Origin: Acidimicrobiaceae bacterium
GTDB taxonomy: Bacteria > Actinomycetota > Acidimicrobiia > Acidimicrobiales > MedAcidi-G1
Reading direction: 5' to 3'
DNA: 35,048 bases
NCBI GenBank assembly: GCA_002714485.1
Contig: PAXM01000019.1
Location: 1-35,048 of the forward strand
The notes below the pieces were generated by a model. The model had not been told where the DNA came from and made no database searches. It saw only the letters and a list, made by a program, of their open reading frames with translations. The translations under genes and the position numbers were made by a program. Below are positions 6,667 to 35,048 of the stretch, one piece after another (position 1 is the first letter of the stretch; the number at the start of each line of letters is the position of its first letter).

Positions 6667-6753
6667 AGGTTGTTCCGCTGAGGGCCACGGGCGCCGCGCG
6701 TTGGCCCCGGCAGGCGTCGAGGGCGATGATGGCCGGGATCGACCCCGGTCTGA

Positions 6754-7848: not shown

Positions 7849-7891
7849 ATTGGCCAGTCGCCCAACACTTCGACGCGTTCAGGAGGCCTCC

Positions 7892-8671: not shown

Positions 8672-8678
8672 GAGCGAC

Positions 8679-9455: not shown

Positions 9456-9491
9456 TCGGAAATCTGGGTCCTATTCGACCCCTGAGGCCAA

Positions 9492-11901: not shown

Positions 11902-12049
11902 CAGTAGGTCAGTTCACTGTCCTGCAGGCGTCCAGTTCGGCGCCCAGGGCAGGCCGCGTAGTGGCCGCTAGGGAAGCAAATACGGCAGGTCTCATAGGTT
12001 CGAGCGTGGTCCAGATCGACGCCCGGGTCGTCACCGGGCCGGAAACCGG

Positions 12050-13138: not shown

Positions 13139-13197
13139 TAGCAGGCTTCAGGCGGATCAACTCGAACGGTCTAGCCCCTTGGCGCATGGCCCGGACC

Positions 13198-14685: not shown

Positions 14686-14687
14686 GA

Positions 14688-15380: not shown

Positions 15381-15389
15381 CCGACCTCC

Positions 15390-16199
15390 CTAGGCCAGGA
15401 GCATCCCACGGGCGACGGTTACGGCACGACCCGTTAGATGGACTCGGTCTCCCACCAACTCGACGTCCATCTCGCCGCCACGGGCCGATGCTTGCTCGGC
15501 CCGAAAGATCAATCCGAGGCGTGGCGCCCACCAGGCTGCCAGTGTCGTATGGGCCGAGCCGGTCACAGGGTCTTCCACGATCCCCCCGTTCGGGGCGAAG
15601 AACCGCGACACCACATCGACGTGCCTCTGGTCGTCACACGCTGAGGTCACGATGACCCCACGCGGCGCCAATCCTCCGATGATCTCGATGTTGGGATTGC
15701 ACTGGCGTACCTCGGCGGCTGTTGCGACTTCGAGTAGAAGATCGGTGGCTCCACGGCCCGCGGCCACGACCTCGGTTCCGACGGCATCGTCCATTGCCTG
15801 GGTCACGTCACGTGCCTCGATCAGGTCCACCGGAAGGTCGAGTCGGATTCCGTCGTCACCAGAAACCGCTGACAGACGACCTGACCGGGTGTGGAAACCG
15901 ATCTCACCGGTGATCCCGTGTTCACTGGCCAGTACATGGGCTGTGGCAAGTGTGGCGTGGCCACAGAGGTCAACCTCGGAAACCGGGGTGAACCAACGGA
16001 GATTCCACTCTGCCGTGCCAGTTCCACTGTGGTTGTCCGACGGGTGACAAAACGCTGTCTCCGAGAGGTTCATCTCGCATGCCACCGACTGCATCCATAG
16101 CTCGTCCACGGGGTCGGCGAGCACCACCACGGCGGCCGGGTTACCCCGAAACGGCTGCTCGGTGAAGGCGTCAACCTGGATGAAATCGATGTTGGACAT
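15390..16199 (-). CDS. PhzF family isomerase
   Basis: VDAFT..PFRGNPAAVV, ETAF, CGHATLA and GSAH motifs. Confidence 0.9.
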   Translation of the reverse strand: MSNIDFIQVDAFTEQPFRGNPAAVVVLADPVDELWMQSVACEMNLSETAFCHPSDNHSGTGTAEWNLRWFTPVSEVDLCGHATLATAHVLASEHGITGEIGFHTRSGRLSAVSGDDGIRLDLPVDLIEARDVTQAMDDAVGTEVVAAGRGATDLLLEVATAAEVRQCNPNIEIIGGLAPRGVIVTSACDDQRHVDVVSRFFAPNGGIVEDPVTGSAHTTLAAWWAPRLGLIFRAEQASARGGEMDVELVGDRVHLTGRAVTVARGMLLA

Positions 16200-16234
16200 A
16201 GTGTGGGATTCCGCTTCGTCGGGAGGTTTGGCTG

Positions 16235-16268
16235 ACCTTGATTACGCAGGGAGCAGGTGGATCAAGGT
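16235..16268. repeat. inverted repeat (8-bp arms ACCTTGAT/ATCAAGGT, 18-nt spacer), function unknown
   Basis: Read directly from the 98-nt gap between the 175-aa ORF stop and the PhzF start. Confidence 0.5.
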
Positions 16269-16297
16269 TTGAGGCAACTCAGGCCGGAGGACCTGCA

Positions 16298-16825
16298 TCA
16301 GCCATCTTCCGTAGTTGGTTGTAGGGCTGCAACGTTGGTTGGGTCCGTCTCCGAGGGGGCGAGGTGTTCGAGCTTCGCTGTATATCCGAGGTAGTCCCAT
16401 ACCATTTGCTCCCCCTCCCGTCGGCGCCGGACCTCGATCGGAATGCCCTCCGGCCGCAAGACGTGTTCTCCGTTCTCGTAGGTGGCCACCACGTGGATCT
16501 CAGTGGCCTTGTCGAACTCGGCAACATCGTGCACTCCGCGCTCCCGGGTGCCGTCGCAGCGCATGTCATGGACGATGCCGCCCCCGGTGACGACCACTCG
16601 GTCGCCGCGCTGTTCCACCCGCTGGACGTGGCCCAGTCCCGGGTGGTCAGGTTGGGTCAGGTTGTCGACTAGGACTTCGACCGTGCGCCAGTAGCCATCG
16701 AGGTCCGGAGCGTCGGTGGGGGTGGGCTCAGCGCAGCCCGTCAGGACCGGGGCCGGCCATGTGGTCCATCCACCGGGAGGAGTGTGGGAGACAGGGATGT
16801 CGTCGATGGTGTGTCGTTCATTCAT
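16298..16825 (-). CDS. hypothetical protein (175 aa), translationally coupled to the sulfatase
   Basis: The ORF has GC-rich third positions. Its ATG overlaps the sulfatase stop by 4 nt. I recognise no family motif. Confidence 0.6.
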   Translation of the reverse strand: MNERHTIDDIPVSHTPPGGWTTWPAPVLTGCAEPTPTDAPDLDGYWRTVEVLVDNLTQPDHPGLGHVQRVEQRGDRVVVTGGGIVHDMRCDGTRERGVHDVAEFDKATEIHVVATYENGEHVLRPEGIPIEVRRRREGEQMVWDYLGYTAKLEHLAPSETDPTNVAALQPTTEDG

Positions 16826-19113: not shown

Positions 19114-19126
19114 TGGATCTCCTAGT

Positions 19127-19948
19127 TCAGACGGTGATGGTGGTGAAGTCGTCGCCGATGATGACCTCTCCGGAGTAGTGCTCGGCAGCGATAGCTATCC
19201 ACTCCGGGTACTGCTCGGGCGTGGGTGCCGGGACCATGTGAGTGAGAGCGAGTCGCTTGGCCCCCACCCGTTCAGCAGTTTGGGCTGCCTCCACAACGCC
19301 GGAGTGGTAGTCCAGGATGTCTTGCGCCATTTCGCCAGGAAGCAGCTCGATAATGTCGCGACGGAGGACGGTCTGCACGTACACGTCGGCACCTGCGGCA
19401 AGTTCGTCGACCCCGTCACACGGAACGGTGTCTCCGACGAGCGCCGCTGTTCTGCCGTCATGCTCGAGGCGGAAGCCGACTGTCGGCCGTACGGGTGCGT
19501 GTTCGGTCGCCGCCGTGGCGATCTGGACCTCACCGAGTGCGAACGAGTCGCCGGGTACCAATTCGGTGACGTCCACCTTGGGTGGATTGGTGAGCACGTC
19601 GTGATGCTCGATCCGGTAACCGATATCTGGTTCGAGTGCATGTAGTTGTCGATCAACAAACTCGGCCATGCCCACCGGACCATAGATCTGAAGTGTCGCG
19701 TTGCCCTGCGACATCACCCAGTGGGTGGTGATGACGTCGTTGAGCGCGCATATGTGATCACTGTGCAGGTGGGTGACGAGTACCCCGGCGAGCAGCCCCG
19801 GAAGCGATCCGGCACCAGCCATTCGCATCACCACCCCCCTACCGGCATCCACGAGGATCTGGGTCTCGCCGGCCTTCACCAGCGTGGACGGGCCAGCTCG
19901 GTTGGCGTCGGGCAGGGGCGAACCGGTCCCGGTAAGGATGACCTCCAT
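19127..19948 (-). CDS. MBL-fold metallo-hydrolase (RNase Z/ElaC-like architecture)
   Basis: THLHSDH Zn motif plus downstream H and D ligands (EHAP, GDT, LTH). The start overlaps the stop of the upstream gene (TAATG). Confidence 0.85.
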   Translation of the reverse strand: MEVILTGTGSPLPDANRAGPSTLVKAGETQILVDAGRGVVMRMAGAGSLPGLLAGVLVTHLHSDHICALNDVITTHWVMSQGNATLQIYGPVGMAEFVDRQLHALEPDIGYRIEHHDVLTNPPKVDVTELVPGDSFALGEVQIATAATEHAPVRPTVGFRLEHDGRTAALVGDTVPCDGVDELAAGADVYVQTVLRRDIIELLPGEMAQDILDYHSGVVEAAQTAERVGAKRLALTHMVPAPTPEQYPEWIAIAAEHYSGEVIIGDDFTTITV

Positions 19949-20775
19949 TACGGCCCCTCTTCTAGATCGACGGAGGCCTCCAGTCGATTAACGATTGGCC
20001 GGGTCACCAAGGTGTAGGTATCGGCGATAGCTGGTTCTCGGTACTGGCGTTGGGCGGCAAGACGATCCGGGTCCATGACAACGGCCATGAAGGCCCGCCG
20101 GCTCGGAAAGGTATTGAAACGAACCTGATCCCAGCGCCGGCCGTCACCGATGATCGTGCCCTCGACAGCGAACCATCCTGTGACGCGAGCCCCATGCGGG
20201 GCCGCGACCTCTCCAGCATGGCTGGAGTAGGACTCCATGTCTGCCGGCGACTGGGGTCCGGCGTCGTTATGGAAGGACAACACGTGGACCACCATCACCT
20301 CGCCGTCATCGGTGGTCGGCGGGTGGGGCACCTCGCTCCAGTCGGGAAGGTCGAACACGCCCCAATTGGCTCCCAACATCGGCTGGGTCCCCATGACAAT
20401 CGTCTTAGCCATTCCCGCATCCTTATGTTCGTGGAGGCGCTGAAAGTCATCACGTTGTTGCATGTCGATGAAGCTGCGGCGCGTCGGGTACTTGACCACC
20501 GCTACTCGGTCCCACTTCGGGTCAGCCCCGAGGAACTGGTCCTGCACGTCACCTACGAAAACGATTTCGGCACCCACGGCGGCCAACGGACCCGTCGGGG
20601 TGTACATATCGTCGGCCTCGCGTCCGCTGATGGCTGAGTCGCGACCATCTGCGTAGTCGGCTGCCGTTCGGTAGCTCATGAGGTTCACCATCCACAACGG
20701 GCCTTCTTCGTCCGGTGGGGTGGATGCCAGACGCCGGCCATACCTGGTGTCGATCTGCCCGTAGCGAGGACTCAT
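19948..20775 (-). CDS. protein with two tandem DUF1330-like (dimeric alpha/beta-barrel) domains
   Basis: There is an internal duplication. WDRVAVVKYPTRRSFIDMQQRDDFQ...H..AGMAKTIVMGTQP is echoed by WDQVRFNTFPSRRAFMAVVMDPDRL...REPAIADTYTLVTRP. Both copies fit the DUF1330 pattern. Confidence 0.55.
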   Translation of the reverse strand: MSPRYGQIDTRYGRRLASTPPDEEGPLWMVNLMSYRTAADYADGRDSAISGREADDMYTPTGPLAAVGAEIVFVGDVQDQFLGADPKWDRVAVVKYPTRRSFIDMQQRDDFQRLHEHKDAGMAKTIVMGTQPMLGANWGVFDLPDWSEVPHPPTTDDGEVMVVHVLSFHNDAGPQSPADMESYSSHAGEVAAPHGARVTGWFAVEGTIIGDGRRWDQVRFNTFPSRRAFMAVVMDPDRLAAQRQYREPAIADTYTLVTRPIVNRLEASVDLEEGP

Positions 20776-20907: not shown

Positions 20908-21843
20908 TCACGTGAGGCGGCCTCCCACGAAGTCGTCGACGAGCTGGGCGAGATCGGGGCCACAGTCCTCTTGTACAAAGTGTCCGCCACCTTCGATAGT
21001 GCGGTGGGGTTGCCCTTGGGCGCCGGGAACAAGGGCCCGGAACGGTTTATCGCCACCTCGGGTGACCGGGTCCTGGTCGCTGAAGCAACACAAGAGCGGC
21101 TTCTCCCAGGCCTTCAAGATCTCCCACGCAACGGCGTTCTCGGCACCCTCAGGTCCGTCCGGTGACGTGACCACAAGTGATGGCCAGATGCGGGCCCCTG
21201 CCTTGTACGAGTCGTCAGGGAATGGTGCGTCGTAAGCGGCGATCTCGGTCGGCGAGAGGTCGCTAACGCATGCCCGGTTGATCAGTTCGCCGATCGGGAA
21301 CACCGGCGAGTCCTGCGAGAACTTCTGCCAGGCCATGAAAGCCTCCCCCGGTGGGGGTGTTCCGGTAGGAAGGCCGGTGTTGGACAAGATGATCCGGGAG
21401 AACCGCTCAGGTTCGGCGGTGACCAATCGCAGTCCGATCAGTCCACCCCAGTCCTGTCCGAAGAATGTGATGTCGTTGAGGTCGAGGTGTTCGAACACCA
21501 GGCTCGACATCCAAGCGACGTGACGGGCGTAGGTGTAGTCAGCCATCTCTGTGGGCTTGTCACTGCGGCCGAAGCCGATCTGGTCGGGTACGACCACCCG
21601 GTGCCCGGCAGCAACCAGTGGTGGAATCATGTGCCGGTACAGGTACCCCCATGACGGTTCGCCGTGCAGGAGCAGCACTGGCGCAGCACCAGTCGGCCCC
21701 TCGTCGAGGTAGTGCACCCGCAACTTCTCGTCGTCGGTCTGATCGCCTTCTACGGGCGTAGCCGGGATCTCGACGTAGTGGGACTCGAACGGAAAATCGG
21801 GTAGGTCGACGAAGCGTTCGTCGGGGGTACGAAGTGCTCTCAT
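20908..21843 (-). CDS. haloalkane dehalogenase (HLD-I, DhlA-like)
   Basis: Similar to Xanthobacter DhlA from N-terminus to C-terminus: RTPDERF..LPDFPF, HYLDEGP, LLLHGEPSWGYLYRHMIP, GFGRSDKP, GQDWGG, AYDAPFPD.SYKAG and GGHFVQE. Confidence 0.85.
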   Translation of the reverse strand: MRALRTPDERFVDLPDFPFESHYVEIPATPVEGDQTDDEKLRVHYLDEGPTGAAPVLLLHGEPSWGYLYRHMIPPLVAAGHRVVVPDQIGFGRSDKPTEMADYTYARHVAWMSSLVFEHLDLNDITFFGQDWGGLIGLRLVTAEPERFSRIILSNTGLPTGTPPPGEAFMAWQKFSQDSPVFPIGELINRACVSDLSPTEIAAYDAPFPDDSYKAGARIWPSLVVTSPDGPEGAENAVAWEILKAWEKPLLCCFSDQDPVTRGGDKPFRALVPGAQGQPHRTIEGGGHFVQEDCGPDLAQLVDDFVGGRLT

Positions 21844-23132: not shown

Positions 23133-24053
23133 GTGATTCCTCTAGACGAGACCTACGAAGGAACGTTCCCGTTCGCACCTCAGACGTTCGATGGCTGTGG
23201 CTTCGTCCAGCACTACGTAGACGAAGGGCCACGTGGCGCCGAGCCGATCGTGCTCCTGCACGGTGAACCGACTTGGGGCTACCTGTATCGGCACATGATT
23301 GGTCCACTATCGGAACACCACCGCGTGGTCGTCCCCGACCACATGGGCTTCGGCAAATCTGAGACACCACAGGACCGCGAGTACACACTCCAGACCCACA
23401 CCGAGAACCTGGTCGCGCTGGTGGAGCACCTCGACCTGTCAGACATCACGTTCTTCGGTCAAGACTGGGGCGGTCCAATCGCCACGGCTTTTACGGTACG
23501 CCACCCTCAGCGGGTCAAACGAATGGTGTATGCAAACTCGCTGGCCGGATACGGCCGAATCGGCGATGAAGACGCAACCCCGATGGCCCAATCGCGCTGG
23601 TTCACCTGGATCGGTGGTGGCCTGGAATCAGGCCGGACCGCCGACGTCCTGTTGAACCTGGGGTCGACCGTTCTCTCGGTCATGAAGTTGACGGGTTTCA
23701 CCAACTCGGCAGCCGTGGACGACACGTGGATTCGGGCTTACTCGGATCCCTTCCCGGACCGAGCGTCTGCCATCGGCGGGCTTGAGTTCCCCCTCGACGC
23801 ATACCTGGGCCGCATTGCCGAATACGTCATCGCCGGGGCCGAAGGGGTGCCCGATCTGGTGTCCAAGCCGGCGATACTTCTGGAAGGCTTGGAGGACGGG
23901 GCGATTCCCCCCGACCGGGCCATCGCCGATTTCCGGGCGCTGTGGCCCGACGGTCCGGTGGTCGAACTACCCGGGGTAGGCCACTACTGCCAGGAGGACG
24001 CCCCCGAGGCCCTGGTGGCCCACGTCAGGGACTTCCTCCAGGCCAACCCCTAG
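23133..24053 (+). CDS. haloalkane dehalogenase-like alpha/beta hydrolase (paralogue of 20908..21843)
   Basis: HYVDEGP, LLHGEPTWGYLYRHMI, GFGKSETP, GQDWGG, YSDPFPD and VGHYCQED motifs. GTG start 6 nt after AGGAGG. Confidence 0.8.
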   Translation: MIPLDETYEGTFPFAPQTFDGCGFVQHYVDEGPRGAEPIVLLHGEPTWGYLYRHMIGPLSEHHRVVVPDHMGFGKSETPQDREYTLQTHTENLVALVEHLDLSDITFFGQDWGGPIATAFTVRHPQRVKRMVYANSLAGYGRIGDEDATPMAQSRWFTWIGGGLESGRTADVLLNLGSTVLSVMKLTGFTNSAAVDDTWIRAYSDPFPDRASAIGGLEFPLDAYLGRIAEYVIAGAEGVPDLVSKPAILLEGLEDGAIPPDRAIADFRALWPDGPVVELPGVGHYCQEDAPEALVAHVRDFLQANP

Positions 24054-24065
24054 GGAACCGCCTAA

Positions 24066-25034
24066 TCAGTCAATTCCGCCCAGGTGGCTGTGGGTGTCGG
24101 CTGCCGCCTCGTCGGGCCAGTTGGTGCGCCAGACCTCTGACTGCACATAGCCCATGGGAATCGATCGGGTCTCAAAGCCATCTACTGGCTCGATCATCGG
24201 CTCGGCCACAACCCGGTGGTTGGGCACCGCGAAGAATGGGGCGCTGTACCGCTCGACCCCGTTGGAGATGACCACCCGGTGGGGTGTAGAGACGAGTCGA
24301 CCCCCCGACCAAACCTCCAAGACGTCACCTACGTTCACCAAAAGTGCCCCCTCGGGACAGCTGGCTTCAACCCATCGACCGTTGCGCTTCCGTACCTCGA
24401 GGCCGCCCACTGGATCGGGGTCAAGCACGGTGACCACGGTGATGTCCTTGTGAGGGTGGAACCCCGGCGCCGGGTCGTCGGCTCGCCTGGCCGGGTAGTG
24501 GAGCAGGGTCGTGTTGGTCAGTGGTGCCGCCATGGCTTCGGTTAGAACGGATCGGTCCAACTCCATCTCGTCGGCCAGCACGTCCAGGAGTCGGTCGACA
24601 AGGCCTTCCATGGACGCCCACCAGGACTCCACGATCTGTGGCATTTCCACCGGGCACTCAGGCCACCGGTTCGGTCCGTACAGGTCGCACTCATTCCTGA
24701 CCGGATGTTCCGGCGGGCATTCCCAGTGAAGCTTGTAGCCCTCGAAAGCATCGGCTTTAGCCGCACCTTCCAATGCACCTGAGTCTCGGTTCGGGGTGAA
24801 AAAGTGCAGCGGGATGAAGCCCCGGTAGTTCTCCCGGGTGATGGCCTGCCGGGCCTTGGAGGCCTTGTCCAGCGCGAACAGGTCGACTAGTAGTTGCCTC
24901 ATTGCCGACAGGTCGGCTTCTGGCACCCCGTGCTCACGTAACGCCACAAACCCGACGGTCGAGAGTGCGGCGATCACGCCGGGTCCGTCGACCAAGTCGA
25001 CCACCGGGACGTCAGGGGCCGAAGCTCCCTCCAT
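24066..25034 (-). CDS. Fe(II)/2-oxoglutarate oxygenase, isopenicillin-N-synthase-like family
   Basis: HPHKDITVVTVL (HxD), STPHRV distal His and RYSAPFF (RxS). The ATG at 25034 overlaps the stop of the M24 gene (TAATG). The track's longer ORF is an extension. Confidence 0.85.
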   Translation of the reverse strand: MEGASAPDVPVVDLVDGPGVIAALSTVGFVALREHGVPEADLSAMRQLLVDLFALDKASKARQAITRENYRGFIPLHFFTPNRDSGALEGAAKADAFEGYKLHWECPPEHPVRNECDLYGPNRWPECPVEMPQIVESWWASMEGLVDRLLDVLADEMELDRSVLTEAMAAPLTNTTLLHYPARRADDPAPGFHPHKDITVVTVLDPDPVGGLEVRKRNGRWVEASCPEGALLVNVGDVLEVWSGGRLVSTPHRVVISNGVERYSAPFFAVPNHRVVAEPMIEPVDGFETRSIPMGYVQSEVWRTNWPDEAAADTHSHLGGID

Positions 25035-26215
25035 TAGATGATCGGCAACTCGGGCGGGGCCCGGCGGGACAGCATTTCGGGCCCGTCGGCCCGTAGGACC
25101 AGGTTCTCTTCGTGGACCATCATTCGACCGGGTGCCCACGTGAGACCTGGCTCGAGAGTTAGGACCATCCCCTCCTCCAGGACAGTGGCGTCGTCTGCGG
25201 TATTGGAAGGCCACTCGGTGACCTGCATACCCAGTCCGTGGCCGAGTCGTCCTACCGAGTTCCCGAGCGACCCCCCGGCGTCGAGCACTGCGGCCATGGC
25301 TCGCCACAGATCGCTGGTGGTGGCTCCCGGCTTAGCTGCGGCGAAACCGGCCTCGGTCGCCTCCCACACCGTCCGGTAGGCCCGTTTGGCATCGGCATCG
25401 GCCCGTCCGAAGGCCACATAGCGGTCGAAGTCGCTGGAGTAGCCGTCAAAGACCGATCCGGTGTCGAACATGAGCAGGTCGCCCGGCTCGATCACCCGGT
25501 CCGAGGGCTGCTTGATGATGTCGTCGAAACCCGGGCCGGTGGCCCCCACGAGGTACGGCACGTCATCGGCACCGCGCTCGAGGAGGTCGATGCGGAACGC
25601 CCGAAAGGCCTCTCTCTCGGTCATGCCTACTGACAACAGGTCGCCGATTTCTTCGAAGGCCCCCGAGACCACGTCGCAGATGTGAGCCACTTTTGCGATC
25701 TCACGGTCGGACTTGACCATCCGCAGGCCGCGGACCACATCGGTTGCGTCCACGAAGCTCGCCGGGGCGATCCGTTCCCGTAGGACATCGAGGTCGGTGA
25801 GGGGCATGCGTACGTGGGTTTCGTGGCCCATAGGCAGGCCGATCCTCACCGGTGTCCTGCCACCACCCCCGGTCAGTTCGGTCAGCGTGTCGACCAGGAG
25901 GATGAGACCGTCGTCGGTCGGCCGTGGTGCGGGCCAGGTCCGAATGTCGTTTACCCACGTGGTACCCATGGCTGAGGCGCCGATGCCCGGGATCACGGCC
26001 ACCGGTCGCCCCGCGGCGGGCAGGATCACGAACCATGGACGGGTAGGGCTCTGCCAGAACGGGGTGTGGAACCCCGTCAGGTACCGGACTTCTGGTTCGG
26101 TGCAGACCAGTAGGGCGTCGAGGTCGCGCTCAGCCATCATTGCCTGTGCCCGGGCGGCCCGGGCCACGAACTCCGCATCGGGGAATCCCCGTTCGGGAAG
26201 GGCTTTCTCCGTCAT
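25034..26215 (-). CDS. M24 family metallohydrolase (creatinase / Xaa-Pro peptidase / ectoine-hydrolase-like)
   Basis: Creatinase-type N-terminal domain. Metal ligands lie in FDTGSVFDGYSSDFDR, GHGLG, LEPG and VHEEN. The ATG at 26215 overlaps the upstream stop (ATGA). Confidence 0.85.
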   Translation of the reverse strand: MTEKALPERGFPDAEFVARAARAQAMMAERDLDALLVCTEPEVRYLTGFHTPFWQSPTRPWFVILPAAGRPVAVIPGIGASAMGTTWVNDIRTWPAPRPTDDGLILLVDTLTELTGGGGRTPVRIGLPMGHETHVRMPLTDLDVLRERIAPASFVDATDVVRGLRMVKSDREIAKVAHICDVVSGAFEEIGDLLSVGMTEREAFRAFRIDLLERGADDVPYLVGATGPGFDDIIKQPSDRVIEPGDLLMFDTGSVFDGYSSDFDRYVAFGRADADAKRAYRTVWEATEAGFAAAKPGATTSDLWRAMAAVLDAGGSLGNSVGRLGHGLGMQVTEWPSNTADDATVLEEGMVLTLEPGLTWAPGRMMVHEENLVLRADGPEMLSRRAPPELPII

Positions 26216-27000
26216 CTTTCGAGCCCTAGGGAAAACAGTCTCCCCAGACCCGTTAACTGGTCGTTGATCCCCGCTAGGCGAAGGAGATGCCACCCAAAGG
26301 CCAGGTTGCTGGATACCACCGCTACCCCGAGTTCGGATTCCAAGTCGGCGGCTACTCCGCAGGCCCGAAGGCTGGTGCACGACACGAACACTGCGTCCAA
26401 TGCTTCTGCATCCGGATCGCCGGCGGAGTTACACACCATTTCTCGCACGGCGTCGGCCACCGCAGCTTCGGTTATACGAGCCACGGTGGCGTCGCTCTCC
26501 TCGAGGAAGGAGCCAGCGGCGGCCACGTCAAGCCCGCGGTCCTCTAGCAGACTCACAATGCCAGTTGTCACCTGTGCGTTGTAGGGCGTTATGACGGCAA
26601 TCCGACTCGCCCCCAGTGCCTCCATGGCGGCCAGAACGGCACTGATGGGGTTGGTGTTGGCTACTTCGGGATGGGCCCGATCCAGTGCGGCCGATACCCG
26701 CTCCTCCCCGATCAGGGTGGCCGCCGAGGTACAGCCGTAGCCGATGACATCAAAACCCATGATTTCCGGAAGCAGGCCGGCCGCCTCGGGAATCCGGGTC
26801 TCCATGGCCAGGAGGGACTCGGCGGTCACCCGGTCCCCCATGGGGATCCTGGTGGCGAAAGCGGCCACCCCCTCGGGCCATAGCGTGGCCAACTCCGCCT
26901 CTACGGTCTGATCGTTCTCCAGCACAACCAGGCCGATCCGGGCTCGACTGCCGAAACCGGCATCGGTTTCGAATGGGAGCTCTTTCAGTTCGACGGTCAT
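26212..27000 (-). CDS. Asp/Glu/hydantoin racemase superfamily protein (maleate isomerase / arylmalonate decarboxylase / EutA-like)
   Basis: 262 aa with two pseudo-symmetric Cys motifs, GYGCTSA and VSCTSLRA. The ATG overlaps the upstream stop (ATGA). Confidence 0.8.
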   Translation of the reverse strand: MTVELKELPFETDAGFGSRARIGLVVLENDQTVEAELATLWPEGVAAFATRIPMGDRVTAESLLAMETRIPEAAGLLPEIMGFDVIGYGCTSAATLIGEERVSAALDRAHPEVANTNPISAVLAAMEALGASRIAVITPYNAQVTTGIVSLLEDRGLDVAAAGSFLEESDATVARITEAAVADAVREMVCNSAGDPDAEALDAVFVSCTSLRACGVAADLESELGVAVVSSNLAFGWHLLRLAGINDQLTGLGRLFSLGLER

Positions 27001-27878
27001 TCTGGGGTCACCTGGGCCTGCTGGTCGAAGAACGATGCGGTTGAAGGCATCTCCCCGAGAGACATCTCGTAGGGCGCGGCACGAATCCGGCCTGTTGGTG
27101 CACCGCGCACCACCTCCCCTTCGTTGACGCTGGGTATGTGGTTGGGGTGCAGGATCCGACTGTCTTCGGATCGGTAACTAAATATGGCCAACGTCCGAGG
27201 CGCCTCGGTCAGATTGGGCGCCGAGCCATGGACGAGGCGGGTGTGCATCAGGCACGCCGAACCCGCCGTTCCATAGCAGGCAACCGGCTTACCGAGGTGG
27301 GCAAGGTCCTCGTCAATGACTGTCCCGGTAAATACCCCGTTCTGCCAGTGCTCGAATACTGGTCCTCGGTGGGTGCCAGGGATGACTTCGAGGGGCCCGT
27401 TTTCTGGGGTCACGTCGTCCACGAATAGCAGGACGGCCAACATGTCGTCGTTGCTGTGGGCCTCGTAGGCGAAGTCCTGGTGGAACTTGACCACCGTATT
27501 GCTACCCGGTTGCTTGCAATTGGTCTTTACGTTGTTGACCGCGAGGTTGGGGCCAACCAGCTGGGCCGCCGCGTCCACCAACGGACTGTTTCGCATGATC
27601 CGTAGGTGGACGTCGCACACCTCCTGTGGAGACGCCACGCGCCGTAGCGCCGGCTGTTCCGCGCTGTGGCCGGGTTGCACGTCGAACCGTGCCCGCCCGT
27701 CCATCGTCGTGCCGAACGGGCCAGCATGGTTCCGGCTCTCCTCCACCCAACAGGCGATCGAGGCTTGGAGGTCGACCAAGTCCATGGCTGACACGGCGTC
27801 GTCCATCATCACGTAACCCTCGGACCAAAAGGCTGCGACCTGCTCGTCGGTAAGAGGCAGCCAGGCCGAAGTGCTCAT
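26997..27878 (-). CDS. phytanoyl-CoA dioxygenase (PhyH) family Fe(II)/2OG oxygenase
   Basis: FHQDFAY (HxD), GPLEVIPGTH and LMHTRLVHGSAPN. I trimmed the start to the ATG at 27878, because the track ORF extends through the upstream gene. Confidence 0.85.
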   Translation of the reverse strand: MSTSAWLPLTDEQVAAFWSEGYVMMDDAVSAMDLVDLQASIACWVEESRNHAGPFGTTMDGRARFDVQPGHSAEQPALRRVASPQEVCDVHLRIMRNSPLVDAAAQLVGPNLAVNNVKTNCKQPGSNTVVKFHQDFAYEAHSNDDMLAVLLFVDDVTPENGPLEVIPGTHRGPVFEHWQNGVFTGTVIDEDLAHLGKPVACYGTAGSACLMHTRLVHGSAPNLTEAPRTLAIFSYRSEDSRILHPNHIPSVNEGEVVRGAPTGRIRAAPYEMSLGEMPSTASFFDQQAQVTPE

Positions 27879-27891
27879 AACGGGGATCCTG

Positions 27892-28890
27892 TCATTCAAC
27901 GTCGCGTTCGTAGTGTTCCGTGGGCGGCGGGTCTGTGCGGAGATCCCGAATAGCCTGTTGTACGTCGATGATTGCCTCTTCCAGTCGATCGGCCGCCCAC
28001 TCGTTGTCGATGCCGAAAGGTAGGTCGTCAACGATTTTCTGCAGTCTGCCGACCCCCCGCCAGGCGGCATGCCGGGCCCACTCGGTGGCCAGCACCGCGG
28101 GATCATCCACTCCGACCAGATCGAGTGAGCGGGACTGATCGTCACCATTGCGGTCCAGACACACGTAGCCATTGACCATTGTGATGCGCTCGGCTGTCGA
28201 GTCCAAAGGCCCACCACGATGAACAACCATGTTGCCGTGCAGCGCGATAGCCCATCCGGGGCCTGGAAAGTCGGGAACCAGGACCTGATCGGTCGGAGGA
28301 CGCTTTCCGGCCGCGGCAAGTGCCGCGGCGTCGTCCTTCGTGCCCAGAAAGATCTCGAAGCGACCACCCGGGAGGGCCGTCGGGTCGCTGACCATCATCA
28401 CGTAGTCCAGAGCCAGGGTGTCGTGATGCCATTTGTCGACAGCATCTCCCACGCTGCTGGGTTCATAGTTGAGGTGCCCGAGGTGAACCGGCATGGTGTG
28501 GGGTGCCACGGCCGTGCCGTACACCTCCACCATCATGTCGGTGACCTCTGGTGAGAGGCATAAGTCCCGAAGCCACCGAGACCGGTAGCAGCCGCCACGG
28601 ACCGTGTTCTCGACGCGATCTCGGGCGTTGGTCTGGAACACTCGTAGTCGGCGGGCGGTGTCCACTAGGACCGCTGCCCCTTCATCGGACAAGATGCGGA
28701 GCGGGGTCGAGAAAGCCACCGGTGTGGCCGTCACGGCGATCTCCTCGCGCTGGTAGCCGAGCTCGGTCAACATGGTGACCCCGGTGGGTGGTCGGAGATC
28801 CAAGTGAAGCGTCGGATCGAAGGCTGGCTCGTCGTCTAGCCAGTCGTACCCGTCGGGTCGGATCTCGGGAAATGGCACCGCTACTGACAT
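27892..28890 (-). CDS. divergent Fe(II)/2OG-oxygenase-like protein (family not recognised)
   Basis: WHHDT (HxD), then VVHRGG 66 residues later, then ERIT (RxS/T-like) 11 residues after that His. This spacing fits a double-stranded beta-helix oxygenase. GAGGAG RBS. Confidence 0.5.
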   Translation of the reverse strand: MSVAVPFPEIRPDGYDWLDDEPAFDPTLHLDLRPPTGVTMLTELGYQREEIAVTATPVAFSTPLRILSDEGAAVLVDTARRLRVFQTNARDRVENTVRGGCYRSRWLRDLCLSPEVTDMMVEVYGTAVAPHTMPVHLGHLNYEPSSVGDAVDKWHHDTLALDYVMMVSDPTALPGGRFEIFLGTKDDAAALAAAGKRPPTDQVLVPDFPGPGWAIALHGNMVVHRGGPLDSTAERITMVNGYVCLDRNGDDQSRSLDLVGVDDPAVLATEWARHAAWRGVGRLQKIVDDLPFGIDNEWAADRLEEAIIDVQQAIRDLRTDPPPTEHYERDVE

Positions 28891-28936
28891 CTTTTGGACT
28901 CCTCAATGCTTTCGACGGTCACCGGCCATTCACCTC

Positions 28937-28954
28937 TCCAAGCCGCAACTTGGA
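28937..28954. repeat. inverted repeat TCCAAG-ccgcaa-CTTGGA in an intercistronic gap
   Basis: Read directly. Lies 15 nt downstream (minus strand) of the flavoenzyme stop. Confidence 0.5.
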
Positions 28955-28968
28955 ATCATGGGCCACGC

Positions 28969-31026
28969 TTAGAGGTGCTGCAAGAGCCGCCGGGCGTCAA
29001 GTAGGGCTGAGGCCACGTCACGACTGGCCACACAGTCGCCGACTCGATACAGCAGGTAGCCACCGTCGGTCGCGGTGAACGCCGGTTGGGCCCGACCTCC
29101 GATGAGCGCCTCCAGGTCCACGACACCGTTGTTGACGGAACCCTCTCGTAACGCCACGTAGAGTTCTGCGTCCGGAGCCACGCCGTGCTCGACAATCACG
29201 GAATCCACCATCCGGTTCATCTGCACCCGGGTGTACTCGTTGCGCATCACTGTCTGAAGAGACCCACCGTCAGTGAGCTCGACTGCGACCAGACGGTGAT
29301 CTGGCGTGATTGCCACGCCGCCCTCGTAGAGCATCCGTAGGTACGCAGGCCCCAATGGTGTAGCTAGGTCTAGGCCGACATGCCGATCAGGTGTCACCAC
29401 TTCGATATCCGACACACCGAGGACCTTGGCCTTTTCCACCAAGAACTCAACGACAGCTAGACCCCGTTCGGCACCATGGTCGTCGTAAACCAGCACCCGG
29501 CCCCCGGGTCGGGCCGAGCCACCCAACACGTCCCATGCTGTGTACACCAGGTCTGCACCCGCCTCCAGATAAGAGACCTCAGGCGATCCACCCGTGGCCA
29601 CAATTACAACGTCGGGCACTTCGGCCAAAACGTCACTTGCATCGACCGGTGTGGACAGCCGAACGTCGACGCCGATCAGCGCCACCTCGTTGACCAGCCA
29701 GTCCAAGAGACCGGCCACCTCGCGCTGACGCTCACCCGCCCGTGCCATAAGTACCAGCTGTCCTCCAAGTCGGTCTTGCGCCTCGAACAGAACCACCGTG
29801 TGGCCCCGCTCGGCAGCCGTTCGTGCTGCCTCTAGGCCACCAGGACCACCACCTACTACGACGACCCGGCGAGCCTGGCCATCAGATCGCACCACCACCT
29901 GCGGCACCGTCCCCTCACGGCCGGTAGCGGGATTCTGGATGCACACCGAATCCAATCCGAGATGTAGTCGATTAATGCACAGCGACGCCCCCACGCAGGC
30001 GCGTATTCGCTGCGGCTCACCCCGCTCCAGCTTGGCCACCAGATGGGGGTCAGCGAAGTGCGCTCGAGTCATTCCCACCAGGTCGACGGCACCGGACTCC
30101 ACGGCGTGTCTGGCCGTGGCCGGGTCGATGATCCGGGTGGCGTGCAGGAGCGGCAGGTCGGTTGCCGAGCGCACAGCAGCAGCGACTGGCAAGTACGGCG
30201 CCAAGGGTGTGCCAGCCGGCGGAATGGCCCGCGACAGGCCTTGGTCGGTAGCAAGTGCCGGTCCAGCCACGTTCAGGAAGTCCAACAGACTTGATCCGGC
30301 CAGGTGCACCGCGATGGCGCAGCAGTCCTCCTCGTCAAGGCCCCCAGCCTGATCCTCGGTGCCCAGCATCCGTATGCCCACTAGGAGCCGCCCGTCGACA
30401 GCCTCCCGGACGGCCTCCAGGACCTCGATCGTTAATCGCAGCCGGTTGTCCAGCGAACCGCCGTATCCGTCGGTCCGGCGGTTTACCAGCGGCGACCAGA
30501 ACTGGTCCAGGAGGTGGCTGGTGGCCAGCAACTCGATCCCATCCAGCCCACTGTCAGCGACCCGTCGGGCAGCGGCAGCGAAGTCAGCCACTACCCGAGC
30601 CAGGTCCGATGGTTCAGCCTCTTTGGGCCAGAACCGGTGCATGGGTTCCCGGATGGGCGATGGGGCGATGGTGGGCAGCCAGTCGCCATCATTGGATACG
30701 TTTCGGCGCCCCATGTGCGTCAGTTGGCACATGATCGCGGTGCCGTGTACGTGGACCCGCTCAGCCATCGCTGCCAGTGGGTCGACGACGGCGTCGGTGG
30801 CGAAATTTAACTGGCCCCAGAGTGAGGCCGAGTCGACCGAGACGTTTGACGATCCACCAATCATGGTCAGTCCGATACCGCCCCGGGCCTTCTCCTCGTG
30901 GTATCGGACATACCGGTCGCTGGGGGTTCCATCGACGTTGTACCCCGGTGAATGGCTGCTGGAGAAGATCCGGTTTCGCAGGCGCAGCCCTGCCAAGTCG
31001 AATGGTTGGAGCAGCGGGTCGTTCAC
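28969..31026 (-). CDS. two-domain flavoenzyme: OYE-like FMN TIM barrel fused to FAD/NAD(P)-binding domain
   Basis: 685 aa. The family includes 2,4-dienoyl-CoA reductase, trimethylamine dehydrogenase and N-methylproline demethylase. N-terminal LRLRNRI...SSH OYE start. Central CVGASLCINR...CIQNPATGRE segment. VVVVGGGPGGLEAA and VVIVATGG dinucleotide motifs. GTG start. Confidence 0.9.
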   Translation of the reverse strand: MNDPLLQPFDLAGLRLRNRIFSSSHSPGYNVDGTPSDRYVRYHEEKARGGIGLTMIGGSSNVSVDSASLWGQLNFATDAVVDPLAAMAERVHVHGTAIMCQLTHMGRRNVSNDGDWLPTIAPSPIREPMHRFWPKEAEPSDLARVVADFAAAARRVADSGLDGIELLATSHLLDQFWSPLVNRRTDGYGGSLDNRLRLTIEVLEAVREAVDGRLLVGIRMLGTEDQAGGLDEEDCCAIAVHLAGSSLLDFLNVAGPALATDQGLSRAIPPAGTPLAPYLPVAAAVRSATDLPLLHATRIIDPATARHAVESGAVDLVGMTRAHFADPHLVAKLERGEPQRIRACVGASLCINRLHLGLDSVCIQNPATGREGTVPQVVVRSDGQARRVVVVGGGPGGLEAARTAAERGHTVVLFEAQDRLGGQLVLMARAGERQREVAGLLDWLVNEVALIGVDVRLSTPVDASDVLAEVPDVVIVATGGSPEVSYLEAGADLVYTAWDVLGGSARPGGRVLVYDDHGAERGLAVVEFLVEKAKVLGVSDIEVVTPDRHVGLDLATPLGPAYLRMLYEGGVAITPDHRLVAVELTDGGSLQTVMRNEYTRVQMNRMVDSVIVEHGVAPDAELYVALREGSVNNGVVDLEALIGGRAQPAFTATDGGYLLYRVGDCVASRDVASALLDARRLLQHL

Positions 31027-31052
31027 GGGCCAGGAGGCCTAGTTGAGTCCAC

Positions 31053-31072
31053 GGTCTAGATCTCGCTAGACC
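31053..31072. repeat. inverted repeat GGTCTAG-atctcg-CTAGACC between cysC and the flavoenzyme gene
   Basis: Read directly. It is AT-richer than its surroundings and lies in one of only two real gaps (79 nt here, 78 nt at 28891..28968) in the 11-gene array. Confidence 0.5.
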
Positions 31073-31105
31073 TTGAGCGAGGTACAACCCACAAGGTCAG
31101 GGACA

Positions 31106-31756
31106 TCAGGAGTAGGTCCCATCAGGGAACAAAAGGTCGAGTACGGCGTCCACGCAATCTTGGAGAGGTCGACCAGTGTCGATCCGCAAGTCAGGCGAGA
31201 TGGGCGTTTCGTATGGTGCCGAGATGCCACTGAAGTCGGGAATCTCTCCCGCCCGAGCCCGGGAGTACAAGCCCTTGACGTCCCGCTCCTCGCAGACCTC
31301 TAGCGGCGTGTCCACGAAGACCTCGATGAAAGTTCCGTCCGGGTGCATGGCCCGCACGGCCTCCCGGTCGGCGCGGTAGGGCGAAATGAATGCGCTGAAC
31401 ACCACCAGACCAGCATCCTGGAACAGCCGGCACACCTCACCGATACGGCGCACGTTCTCAGTTCGGTCATCGGGCGAGAATCCAAGGTCGCGGTTAAGGC
31501 CCATGCGGACGTTGTCTCCATCCAAGACGTATGCAGCCACACCGCGGGCCACCAAGGCGTCCTCCACCGCGAATGCCAGCGTGGACTTCCCGGAGCCGGA
31601 AAGTCCGGTAAGCCAGACCGTCCTGCCATCGTGGCCGGTCAGCGCAGTCCGTCGGGCCCGGTTCACGTGCCCCTCCGCTCGGGTGAGGTCCTGGGACACC
31701 GGTCCGTTATTCCTCGAAGAGTCGAATTCAGCCACGGAGCACACCCCGATCCTCAA
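31106..31756 (-). CDS. cysC: adenylylsulfate (APS) kinase, stand-alone and canonical
   Basis: [23 protein letters not shown] and [11 protein letters not shown]. The ATG at 31756 overlaps the cysNC end by 29 nt. An in-frame GTG at 31699 is an alternative start. Confidence 0.9.
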
Positions 31757-33647
31757 GTAACGTGAAGATGGCGTCTACGCATTCATCGATGTCCTGCACC
31801 GAGGTGTCGAGTCGAAGATCCATGTCGGTGGGCTGTTCATAGGCCGATGACACACCCGGGTAGTCCTCAATTTCTCCCCTATCGGCCGCTTCGTACTGGC
31901 CACTTGAGTCGCGCTGCCGGCAGACCCCAATCGGAGTGTCAACAAACACTTCCACGAAGCGGTGGTCGCCAATGAGTTCGCGGGCACGAGTTCGAACATT
32001 GGCCTCGGGAGCCACCAGTGCGGCAATGGCTATCAGGCCTTGCCGATTGGCTAGCAGCGCCACCTCGGCCACACGACGCAGGTTCTCCGAACGGTCCCGG
32101 GCGCTGAAACCAAGGTCTCGGCTTATGCCGAGACGTACGTTCTCCCCGTCGAGCCGAATGGTGGCGTGGCCGCGATCGAACAAACGGCGCTCCAAGCCCG
32201 CTGCAATGGTTGACTTGCCTGCCGCTGTCAAGCCGGTCAGCAGGACCGTGCAGGGTCGTTGGCCAAACCGTGCCACTCGCTCCTCCGGCGTGATCTCTGA
32301 TCGGTGGCGGACTAGGCCGACAGCAGGGCTCCGATCCCAGACCGAGGAGGCGCACAGAATCATTCCGGCGGCTACCGTCGCATTGTCCATCCGATCCACG
32401 AGGACGAACGAGCCAGTCCGCCGGTTGGTGGAATAGGGGTCAAATAGCAACTCGCGTTCAGCGGTGATCGTGCAACGGGCGATGTCGTTGAGGGCCAGCT
32501 CTGTGGCTGCCACGTGCTCTAGCGAGTTGACGTCCACCCGATAGTCGATGGCGGCCACCGATACGCCAACGAGGCCGTTAGCCGACTGCAGGAGGTATTG
32601 GCGACCGGGCCGCATTTCCTCGTGGGCCATCCAGACCAGCATGGCGTCGACCTCGTGGGACCGAGTCGGCTGGTCGTCGTTTCCCACCAGGAGGTCACCC
32701 CGGCTGACGTCGATCTCATCGGCCAGGGTCAGCGTCACCGCATCGCCGGGCCCGACCTCGTCAAGGTCACCATCGAAGGACACGATGCGGTCAACAGTGG
32801 ATGCCACCCCCGACGGGAGTGACACCACGGGATCCCCGGGCCGCAGCACTCCGGAGACCACCGTGCCAGCGAACCCTCGGAAGTCGCCGTCTGGACGAAT
32901 CACCAACTGCACTGGCAGGCGGAACCGGTCCAGATCGACGCCGGCGGCCACGTCGACAGTCTCGAGGTACTCCATCAAGGGCGGTCCATCGAACCAGGTG
33001 AGGTTGTCCCCACGTTCCACCACGTTGTCGCCCAGTAGGGCCGACATGGGCAGGAAGTACGGGTCGACCAGCTGCAGACCGGTGGCGAAGGCCTGGTAGT
33101 CGGCCCGGATCTCGTCGAACCGATCCTCGGACCAGGCCACCAGGTCCATTTTGTTTACGGCCACTACCACCTTATGGATGCCAAGCAGGCTGGCGATGTG
33201 GCTGTGTCGGCGGGTCTGGTCAAGTACGCCGTGCCGGGCGTCCACGAGGATCACCGCCAGCTCACATGTCGAAGCCCCGGTGGCCATGTTGCGGGTGTAC
33301 TGCTCGTGACCAGGGGTATCAGCCACGATGAACTTGCGACGGGCTGTCGAGAAGTAGCGGTAAGCCACGTCAATGGTGATGCCCTGTTCCCGTTCAGCCT
33401 TTAGGCCGTCCATGAGCAATGACAGATCGAGATGGTCGCCTGCGGACCCCACAACCGTTGAGTCGACCTCTAGACCGGCAAGCTGATCCTCGTAGATCAT
33501 GCGTGAGTCGTGGAGTAGGCGCCCGATGAGGGTCGACTTGCCGTCGTCGACACTGCCGCAGGTCAGGAGCCGTAGTAGGTCCTTACGCTCGTGTTCGGCT
33601 AGGTAGGCCTCAATGTCGGTGGCGATGAGCTCGGAGGCGTGAGACAT
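31728..33647 (-). CDS. cysNC: sulfate adenylyltransferase subunit 1 (GTPase) fused to an APS-kinase-like C-terminal domain
   Basis: [17 protein letters not shown] and NKMD GTPase motifs. The C-terminal ~190 aa are homologous to CysC but with altered motifs (see findings). Confidence 0.9.
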
Positions 33648-34564
33648 CAGAAGTACCCCTCGCGTTTCTTGTCCTCCATGGAGCCAGCCTGATCGTGGTC
33701 GATGACTCGCCCCTCGCGCTCGGACCGGGTGGCCAACAGCATCTCCTGGATGATCTCAGGCAGCGTGGTGGCCGTCGACTCCACTGCACCCGAAAGCGGG
33801 TAGCAGCCGAGGGTGCGAAAACGCACCGACCGCATCTGAGGCTCTTCCCCGTCGGAGAACCGGAAGCGATCGTCATCGACCATGATGAGGGTTCCATCGC
33901 GTTCCACAACAGGCCGTACCTTGGACCGGTATAGGGGCACGATGTCGATGCCTTCCAGGTGGATGTACTGCCAGACGTCCAACTCGGTCCAGTTGCTAAT
34001 CGGAAACACTCGGATGCTCTCACCCCTGTGGATCCGGCCGTTGTAGAGGTTCCAGAGCTCAGGTCGCTGGTTCTTCGGATCCCATCGGTGGTTCCGGTCC
34101 CGAAAACTGAATTCCCGCTCCTTGGCCCGGGACCGTTCCTCGTCGCGCCGAGCACCCCCGAACGCCGCATCGAAACCACCGGCGTCCAACGCCTGGCGCA
34201 GGGCCACAGTCTTCATGATGTCGGTGTAGTTCCTCGACCCGTGGTCGAACGGGTTGATCCCTTCGGCTACACCAGCGGTGTTGGTGTGGACGATCAGGTC
34301 CAGATCCAGTTTTGCGGCTGTCTGGTCACGGAACTCGATCATTTCCTGGAACTTCCAGGTGGTGTCGACGTGGAGCAGCGGGAACGGAATGGGTCCCGGG
34401 TGGAACGCCTTACGGGACAGATGCAGGAGCACTGACGAGTCCTTACCGATCGAGTAGAGCATGACCGGCCTCTCGAACTGGGCAACGACCTCACGCATCA
34501 CGTGGATGGCCTCGGCCTCCAGTTGCTGGAGGTGGGTCCGCTGCTGTGCTGTGTTCGACGCCAC
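33647..34564 (-). CDS. cysD: sulfate adenylyltransferase subunit 2
   Basis: [15 protein letters not shown]-loop. Full-length CysD pattern ending in [11 protein letters not shown] start 3 nt after the TetR stop. The stop overlaps the cysNC ATG. Confidence 0.95.
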
Positions 34565-34567
34565 GGT

Positions 34568-35048
34568 TCAGCCATCACCTAGGGCGATGGCCTCGCAGCG
34601 TTGCAGGCCGCGCTCCAGCGCCTCCCGGTCCCCGAAACGGGCCCAGTTGAGCCAAAGCCCATTCTGGGTGAGTGACACGTCGACAGCTCGTTCTCGTGCT
34701 CCGGTCGCGGAGAGTTCGGGACGGGCCTGCAAAATCATTTCAGTCATCCGGTCCACGTACTCGCAGTAAAACTTCAGATCGGTCTTGCCGATCTCCGGGT
34801 CTAGCCGGCCCGCCGCCCAAATAACTAGCCGGAGCCGACGGTTCTCCGACGACAAGAATTCTTCGGCCATCGTCCCCCGGATAAACGTCCTTACCCGCTC
34901 GTCAGCACCTGTCACCCCATCTATGGAAACCATGGACTCGACCAGAAGGCGATCACAGGCCACCTGTAACGCCGCGCCAATTAGGGCCTGCTTGCCCGAG
35001 AAGTGATAGTTGAGCAGCCCCAGGGACACATCCGCTTCGGTTGCCACG
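34568..35048 (-). CDS. TetR/AcrR family transcriptional regulator (N-terminus beyond window edge)
   Basis: ATEADVSLGLLNYHFSGKQAL is the recognition-helix end of a TetR HTH. It is followed by a helical ligand-binding domain. The ORF is open to the window edge. Confidence 0.75.
   Translation of the reverse strand, partial: VATEADVSLGLLNYHFSGKQALIGAALQVACDRLLVESMVSIDGVTGADERVRTFIRGTMAEEFLSSENRRLRLVIWAAGRLDPEIGKTDLKFYCEYVDRMTEMILQARPELSATGARERAVDVSLTQNGLWLNWARFGDREALERGLQRCEAIALGDG

Follow-up and report, generated by a model that had tools for sequence, protein, structure and literature searches.

On the minus strand of positions 24066..35048 of contig PAXM01000019.1 (assembly GCA_002714485.1, an Acidimicrobiaceae bacterium; the whole stretch of 35,048 nucleotides that was analysed is called the window here), genes for the synthesis of 3'-phosphoadenosine 5'-phosphosulfate (PAPS) run into a set of oxidative and hydrolytic genes. 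This locus is probably, though by no means certainly, a degenerate copy of a conserved marine sulfation cluster. The relatives that carry the intact cluster have a sulfotransferase (ST) gene of the Pfam family PF19798 between the two halves, and at the window locus that gene appears to have been deleted, leaving a stub of 16 codons. The initial annotation had accounted for the missing ST in three ways, namely that the transfer step is encoded elsewhere, that one of the unassigned proteins performs it, or that the juxtaposition serves another purpose such as sulfur recovery; a deletion at the locus itself, with its 16-codon remnant, now takes the place of all three as the main answer.

The listing of open reading frames (ORFs), together with Pfam and NCBIfam scans, gave ten intact co-directional genes on the minus strand and a TetR gene truncated by the window edge. 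The features are the following:

34568..>35048, minus strand: TetR-family regulator with a BetI-type C-terminal domain (Pfam TetR_C_6 and a partial TetR_N; cut at the window edge).
33647..34564, minus strand: cysD, small subunit of sulfate adenylyltransferase (NCBIfam NF009214, 516 bits against a cutoff of 413).
31728..33647, minus strand: cysN fused to a domain resembling adenosine 5'-phosphosulfate (APS) kinase, with LDGEN replacing LDGDN (NF004035, 920 bits, above cutoff).
31106..31744, minus strand: cysC, stand-alone canonical APS kinase (NF003013, 264 bits; canonical P-loop and LDGDN).
31056..31106, minus strand: putative 16-codon remnant of the PF19798 ST gene (matches the ST N-terminus; its ATG overlaps the cysC stop codon).
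28969..31026, minus strand: two-domain flavoenzyme with a flavin mononucleotide domain of the old yellow enzyme (OYE) type and an FAD/NAD(P) domain (Pfam Oxidored_FMN and Pyr_redox_2).
27892..28890, minus strand: predicted BesD/HalD-like Fe(II)/2-oxoglutarate (2OG) hydroxylase of the HxD type, 332 amino acids (from fold and invariant residues; below threshold in Pfam).
26997..27878, minus strand: PhyH-family 2OG oxygenase, nearest to ectoine hydroxylase (Pfam PhyH).
26212..27000, minus strand: EutA-like protein of the Asp/Glu-racemase superfamily (Pfam Amdase).
25034..26215, minus strand: M24 metallohydrolase with a Creatinase_N domain (Pfam).
24066..25034, minus strand: DIOX_N/2OG-FeII_Oxy oxygenase of the IPNS/ACCO/EFE class (Pfam), a variable member of the cluster.
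12050..13138, minus strand: membrane oxygenase of the FA_hydroxylase family (Pfam), possibly of the same functional set.

Spacings were taken from the independent gene calls of a public contig (L081) that is 99.77% identical to the window. TetR and cysD are separated by 3 nt, cysD and cysNC overlap by 1 nt and cysNC and cysC by 17 nt; downstream of cysC there are gaps of 79, 78 and 13 nt and then overlaps of 4, 4 and 1 nt. The scans and these calls reproduce the order, gaps and overlaps that had been read from the window at the outset. The population to which the window belongs consists of marine planktonic Acidimicrobiales and is found in several metagenome assemblies, including TARA Oceans. 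Elsewhere in the window a domain of the F420H2-dependent quinone-reductase family (3838..4803, minus strand) fits an actinobacterial origin.

The initial annotation had reported no ST motif in any ORF, and this holds. Pfam searches of every substantial ORF found no ST domain in any real ORF of the window, none was seen in the 3.8 kb past its right edge (on L081), and a tblastn search with three ST sequences, like a search of all six-frame window fragments with an ST profile, recovered the stub alone. The stub lies in the 79-nt interval between cysC and the OYE gene, which had previously been treated as a plain gap and is common to all contigs of the window population. Its 16-codon ORF begins with an ATG that overlaps the cysC stop codon (TGATG) and is identical at 9 of 14 positions to ST residues 1-14 (MFLTLWATPRSTST), the consensus N-terminus of the ST being MFLTLWATPRSTSTAFEWMM. 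No other window site, in any of the six frames, has at least nine matches in 14 to the ST, and nine was reached in one of 200 shuffled windows. Among 1170 six-frame fragments the stub is also the best match to the ST profile (positions 1-14, E 0.2; runner-up E 3.6). In a DNA alignment with L089, which of the ST-bearing relatives is the closest, it lines up with the end of cysC and the start of the ST gene, and it starts at the cysC stop, as the ST gene does there. Because the 79-nt interval is one that holds a gene in relatives, the strand is right and the match begins at residue 1, a chance resemblance seems very unlikely. With its start at the cysC stop and its likeness to the ST N-terminus, the stub points to deletion of the ST gene. 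An nhmmer search for further ST remnants, covering the window and the ST-less junctions of L003, L004, L005, L007 and L008, gave nothing convincing; a weak match at 1112..1188 falls within an unrelated hydrolase gene, on the opposite strand, and was judged compositional.

The relatives were collected in two sets, by tblastn of the window proteins against 80 genome loci seeded with the HalD-like hydroxylase and by a metagenome scan seeded with the PF19798 ST. In the first set, the order cysD-cysNC-cysC-OYE-HalD-like-PhyH-Amdase-M24 recurs in L003-L009 at 68-90% amino-acid identity. The second set yielded the same order in L088-L093, in the form cysD-cysNC-cysC-[Amd2]-ST-OYE-HalD-like-PhyH-Amdase-M24, Amd2 being a racemase-like protein. 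The PAPS genes and the downstream genes, which the initial annotation had proposed to belong together, thus co-occur in both sets. L006, L009 and L088-L091 have a PF19798 (Sulfotransfer_5) ST gene at precisely the cysC-OYE junction, and in L092 and L093 it stands directly upstream of the OYE gene. A further arrangement, Amd2-ST-HalD-like-PhyH-Amdase-M24 with neither cysDNC nor the OYE gene (L066, L094, L095, L097-L099 and L127), is the older one.

The ST family also adjoins cysDNC or cysC in other arrangements (L011, L104, L118, L128, L131, L169 and L170), among them an Amd-ST-cysC operon in L170 and, in L169, a locus with an additional Sulfotransfer_3 enzyme. Since the ST lies between cysC and OYE in the relatives, and at least four other arrangements also place it next to cysDNC or cysC, the suspected link between PAPS supply and sulfation is borne out. 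Of the 35 ST loci whose flanks extend 6 kb or more, 6 contain cys genes, far more than expected of random genes (roughly 0.5% by our own estimate). The tightest partner of the ST is Amd2 (59 of 81 ST loci), for which the best match among solved structures is 4ix1, of unknown function; L168 holds an M24-Amd2-ST operon.

The proteobacterial locus L011 carries an operon of HalD-like, Amd2, ST, cysD, cysNC and FA_hydroxylase genes, the last of which is 54% identical to the window product of 12050..13138. Over 6163..16553 it unites PhzF, a sulfatase, two HalD-like genes, Amd2, ST, cysD, cysNC and FA_hydroxylase, families that are spread over 12-35 kb of the window, with 50-70% identity for HalD-like, cysD, cysNC and FA_hydroxylase. 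These shared families and identities suggest transfer of the module between phyla. A paralog of the FA_hydroxylase gene also stands directly upstream of the ST in L087, L104 and L169.

The ST of the relatives is predicted to be a genuine PAPS-type enzyme. It scores 50-61 bits against PF19798 (gathering cutoff 23.2) and conserves the motifs TPRSTST and IRDP, of the 5'-phosphosulfate-binding (5'-PSB) and 3'-phosphate-binding (3'-PB) type. Its structural model (pLDDT 92.6) matches TPST2, the ST domains of CurM and OLS, retinol dehydratase, SULT2A1 and StaL; a PDB sequence search with the ST profile gave no significant match, so that fold comparison alone succeeded. The family has about 1,700-2,000 homologs. 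Our literature search, which included STs with ectoine genes and marine Acidimicrobiia with PAPS, found PF19798 only in Pfam family lists and no functional study of it.

Whether the ST was lost or gained was examined with a neighbour-joining tree built from four concatenated proteins (HalD-like, PhyH, Amdase and M24). Its basal clade is entirely ST-positive, ST-positive loci are scattered through the crown clade, and the ST-negative lineages (the window, L003, L007, L004/5 and L008) are interspersed among them. Together with the remnant, the ST-positive basal clade and the scattered pattern imply that the ST was present ancestrally and would have been lost independently at least five times.

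Several observations weigh against this view of the window. In the unbiased sample, seeded with the HalD-like protein, only 2 of 8 lineages have an ST at the junction; the ST-less form is thus the common one and clearly viable, for which reason the ST may be accessory, or the cys genes may at no time have been reserved for it. Housekeeping glpK lies inside the conserved downstream block, so part of the synteny is plain collinearity. The remnant itself is short and its E value of 0.2 is weak alone, the case being one of position together with sequence.

Two of these points bear also on a possible but doubtful alternative, that cysD-cysNC-cysC is a housekeeping assimilatory operon and the six downstream genes an unrelated operon for the catabolism of an osmolyte-like compound, adjacent by shared descent. 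The ST-less majority of the unbiased sample and the collinearity to which glpK contributes would fit it, as would the older arrangement, in which ST, HalD-like, PhyH, Amdase and M24 genes stand together without cys genes. According to a published report, marine planktonic Acidimicrobiales use PAPS synthase and CysH for sulfate reduction (PMC10205998). The 79-nt and 78-nt gaps showed no terminator-like or sigma-70-like site, although a sigma-70 scan may miss promoters in an actinobacterium and the gaps could hold some invisible to it; for the gap with the ST remnant there was also no significant RNA structure (z = -0.96) and no Rfam match, which is a weak substitute for transcripts. Against an incidental adjacency, the cys genes of the crown clade abut the ST gene across short gaps or with overlapping stop codons, and the ST family adjoins cysDNC or cysC in several unrelated arrangements, including in Proteobacteria. 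In addition, only a pathway that ends in PAPS and not in APS requires a separate canonical APS kinase.

That separate kinase is a consistent feature of the Acidimicrobiales. The kinase-like domain fused to CysN (31728..32327 in the window) has LDGEN in place of LDGDN in every Acidimicrobiales locus (L003-L009, L091, L104, L118 and L169), and there a separate canonical CysC always follows the LDGEN-type CysNC, whereas the proteobacterial CysNC (L011 and L128) keeps LDGDN and has no separate cysC. This contrast points to the stand-alone CysC as the functional APS kinase; the fused LDGEN domain may be inactive or regulatory. Differences within the window population comprise 8 synonymous and 0 nonsynonymous changes in cysC, and the ratio of nonsynonymous to synonymous polymorphism (pN/pS) is 0.14 in cysNC; PAPS synthesis would therefore still be under purifying selection after the loss of the ST.

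An ordinary assimilation operon might have been expected to continue with cysH, sir and cysK, and the initial annotation had left room for these just beyond the right edge. They are absent from the window ORFs and from the next 3.8 kb, which hold an FMO-like gene, a CN_hydrolase gene and an Oxidored_FMN gene. The accompanying premise, that cysDN(C) normally lies with cysH, sir and cysK, is weak for Actinobacteria: the cysDNC genes of Mycobacterium tuberculosis stand alone, apart from cysH and sirA, and supply both reductive assimilation and sulfation.

Persistent selection on cysC and the PAPS genes overall after the local loss would also suit a second alternative, in which nothing of the pathway is missing: the ST, together with Amd2, has moved elsewhere in the genome, and PAPS made here continues to supply the sulfation of whatever the six downstream genes produce. 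The family does occur in other contexts in Acidimicrobiales, as FA_hydroxylase-ST in L087, L104 and L169 and as M24-Amd2-ST in L168, and since our view covers about 39 kb of the genome, an ST elsewhere is possible, a point that also counts against the degenerate-copy reading. We nevertheless regard relocation as unlikely. A decayed stub occupies the original site, neither the window nor L081 holds an ST, loss at the same site in at least five lineages looks like dispensability, and the PAPS could have other consumers.

The TetR gene has probably decayed as well. As called on L081 it encodes 164 amino acids and begins within the helix-turn-helix, and the TetR_N match in the window spans profile positions 23-46 only. 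Compared with the intact TetR of L006, the independent assemblies L081 and L082 share a 5-nt deletion in the part that encodes the helix-turn-helix (about 3795..3810 of L081, ~40 nt outside the right window edge), which gives a frameshift and a premature stop; in the window population the gene is thus a probable pseudogene. Most relatives have no TetR gene at all, and in L003, L004, L005, L007 and L091, where it is absent, the FMO-like gene lies directly divergent from cysD. The module can consequently hardly be described as TetR-controlled, as it had been. The TetR frameshift and the ST deletion make two decay events in one operon.

Downstream of the stub, the 332-amino-acid protein was the one without a Pfam family. 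It has about 950 homologs, mostly from marine or sponge-associated Acidimicrobiales, with some from Proteobacteria and SAR324. In 22 homologs H155, D157, H224 and R235 are invariant and the run H155-H156-D157 is invariant or nearly so, which vindicates the initial description as an HxD..H oxygenase-like protein. The best Foldseek matches of its AlphaFold model (pLDDT 77.8) are 6nie, 7jsd, 7u6j, 9oer and 7u6h (E about 1e-5), that is, BesD, HalA, HalB and HalD and a BesD-like lysine hydroxylase (7jsd). Against the Pfam family HalD (PF23169) it reaches 13.7 bits, short of the cutoff of 26, and its homolog P0052 reaches 25.3. The halogenase signature, Gly or Ala for the Asp of HxD, is not present among the 22 homologs. 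On the strength of the invariant triad and the fold matches, the protein is predicted to be an Fe(II)/2OG oxygenase of the hydroxylase type, akin to the free-amino-acid halogenases.

The suggestion that an unassigned protein performs the transfer loses its main candidate in this way. That a window protein, either the 332-residue one or the EutA-like one, should be a non-canonical ST has nothing in its favour beyond the absence of a canonical ST, and is barely credible: triad and fold make the former a 2OG/Fe(II) oxygenase, the remaining genes are confidently assigned to families, and relatives hold a canonical ST besides all these genes.

The other downstream products have named relatives at some distance. 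By sequence, the closest solved structures of the OYE/FAD enzyme are NCR, 2,4-dienoyl-CoA reductase, trimethylamine dehydrogenase and histamine dehydrogenase. The PhyH protein has ectoine hydroxylase as its best NCBIfam match (50 bits against a cutoff of 336) and EctD as its best PDB match; the Amdase protein scores 173 bits as EutA (cutoff 318) and matches 4ix1, maleate isomerase and AMDase in the PDB; and the M24 protein scores 68 bits as EutD (cutoff 613), matches prolidases and the ectoine hydrolase DoeA, and has all five metal ligands as read from its sequence. Ectoine catabolism was ruled out as an assignment, all NCBIfam scores being far under the family cutoffs. The DIOX_N/2OG-FeII_Oxy protein matches enzymes like the ethylene-forming enzyme (EFE) in the PDB, and only some relatives have a homolog of it, at 39-72% identity.

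In the other ~70 of the 80 loci the HalD-like hydroxylase stands in unrelated contexts. An analysis of its conserved neighbours across all 80 found no universal partner, and its substrate is therefore not inferable from neighbours. An apparent resemblance of an MR/MLE gene in L006 to the HalD-like N-terminus was set aside as spurious (a gappy alignment with 30% identity and 27% gaps). A gene of the MttB family (non-pyrrolysine, trimethylamine-methyltransferase-like) lies directly 3' of the HalD-like gene in eight loci (L042, L046, L048, L053, L054, L061, L068 and L071), and another (1999..3552 of L168) lies near the M24-Amd2-ST operon of that locus; these neighbours hint at quaternary-amine substrates. 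PotABCD-type transporters, a LysE exporter and a type II haloacid dehalogenase are further neighbours elsewhere.

In the intact relatives CysD and CysN would make APS, the stand-alone CysC would convert it to PAPS, and the PF19798 ST, often with Amd2, would use it to sulfate a small molecule of amino-acid-like type. The gene identities, the ST at this junction in relatives, the remnant, the TetR frameshift and the recurrent ST-PAPS linkage are observed; what we infer is the acceptor, whether the pathway builds up or breaks down its substrate, and how the PAPS is used today. The acceptor would most probably be a hydroxyl put on by the adjacent BesD/HalD-like or PhyH 2OG hydroxylase, and the EutA-like, M24 and OYE/FAD enzymes would process the same molecule. 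The substrate we read as a small amino-acid-like or osmolyte-like zwitterion, hydroxylated and then O-sulfated, with the ester as product or as leaving group. In the window lineage, with the ST deleted and the TetR frameshifted, the sulfate-transfer step at the locus would be gone; the PAPS genes would presumably serve general sulfate activation too, for cysteine synthesis or other sulfotransferases, and the downstream oxidative and hydrolytic genes would run on without sulfation.

A scheme of sulfur recovery, in which cytoplasmic sulfatases of the window free sulfate from imported organosulfates and CysDNC and CysC re-activate it, draws on two formylglycine (FGly)-type sulfatases (16822..19113 and 4423..5859, carrying the motifs CSPTR and CSPSR and lacking an obvious signal peptide), and L011 likewise pairs a sulfatase with the module. 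We consider it very unlikely. Since seawater holds about 28 mM sulfate, such scavenging has no obvious benefit; the 763-residue sulfatase belongs to a lineage-specific four-gene insertion that is missing from relatives; and the ST at the relatives' junction is left unexplained. The insertion (16298..20775) is seen by comparison with L006, L008 and L088, where the haloalkane dehalogenase gene directly precedes PhzF, and comprises a DUF1330-like gene, an MBL/RNase-Z-like hydrolase, the 763-residue sulfatase (CSPTR) and an unknown protein of 175 residues. The window lineage would thus have lost one sulfotransferase and gained one sulfatase.

Beyond the degenerate-copy reading, the intact clusters may be taken one step further, to a cryptic sulfation that we hold to be distinctly unlikely. 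An amino-acid-like or osmolyte-like molecule would be hydroxylated by a 2OG enzyme and sulfated by the PF19798 ST with local PAPS; the sulfate would then leave, through Amd2 or the nearby dehalogenase-type hydrolases, by elimination, cyclisation or inversion, and the OYE/FAD enzyme would carry out a reduction. This would be the sulfate counterpart of the cryptic chlorination of BesD and CmaB and, if true, would operate in abundant marine Acidimicrobiia and Gammaproteobacteria. Next to the array, a haloalkane dehalogenase (NF002043, 445 bits) and a second haloalkane dehalogenase (HLD)-like hydrolase flank a Rieske oxygenase (20908..21843 and 21853..~23100, minus strand, and 23133..24053, plus strand), the best named relative of the Rieske enzyme being the glycine-betaine monooxygenase GbcA; proteobacterial ST loci have a type II haloacid dehalogenase instead of the haloalkane dehalogenase type.

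It is mainly the intact relatives that are of biological interest. Their cluster is an undescribed sulfation module, present in several arrangements and in two phyla, and of a known general kind, PAPS supply beside an ST. Behind the undescribed pathway that had been suspected in the window there is in this sense a real cluster, but the window copy of it appears degenerate. With its many homologs, its nearly constant pairing with a racemase-like protein and its repeated linkage to PAPS genes, the PF19798 ST would offer marine bacterioplankton and sponge symbionts a widespread and unstudied means of making or transforming organosulfates, a matter of relevance to the cycling of organic sulfur in the sea. 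Comparison of the loci singles out the ST, Amd2, the HalD-like hydroxylase and CysC as a gene set, for which the natural ST-minus variants, including the window population, are built-in controls. There is also a methodological lesson, in that an enzyme 'missing' from a coherent cluster may have been deleted recently, with no more than an intergenic stub to show for it.

Several known systems share features with the cluster. Three features recall the activating sulfotransferases, which make sulfate a leaving group (sulfation-dependent aziridine formation included): the CurM and OLS ST domains and retinol dehydratase are among the best fold matches of the relatives' ST, that ST has a protein of the racemase superfamily as its tight partner, and haloalkane and haloacid dehalogenase-type enzymes, which act on leaving-group substrates, lie nearby. 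TM-scores, however, do not split these from ordinary sulfotransferases, and elimination or displacement is a lead only. The likeness to the ectoine and hydroxyectoine genes consists in the adjacent PhyH, racemase-like and M24 proteins, which have EctD, EutA and DoeA as best or near-best named relatives; there are no homologs of eutB, eutC or eutE/doeB, and the window genes are paralogs rather than orthologs. BesD, HalA, HalB and HalD are the closest fold of the 332-residue protein, which has the HxD triad of the hydroxylase members, but identity is 12-17%, TM-scores are only 0.43-0.57, and the protein has extra N- and C-terminal segments and forms a marine family of its own. With M. tuberculosis cysDNC the window shares an actinobacterial cysD-cysN(C) operon apart from cysH and sirA, and it differs in the extra stand-alone cysC and in running on into oxygenase and hydrolase genes.

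Sulfotransferase genes that lie in one cluster with dedicated CysD/CysNC paralogs are known from nodPQ-nodH, for rhizobial Nod-factor sulfation, and raxPQ-raxST, for tyrosine sulfation of RaxX in Xanthomonas. Of the features of the nodPQ/nodH type, the window has CysD, CysN and an APS kinase gene and no ST gene within the cluster, a gene that L006, L009, L088-L093 and L011 do have. Unlike these systems, the marine cluster uses an uncharacterised PF19798 ST, its acceptor is probably a small amino-acid-like molecule, the fused kinase domain has the LDGEN variant beside a separate CysC, and at the window locus the ST appears deleted. Like them, the intact relatives L006, L009, L088-L091 and L011 encode CysD and a CysN-APS-kinase fusion beside a predicted PAPS-dependent ST.

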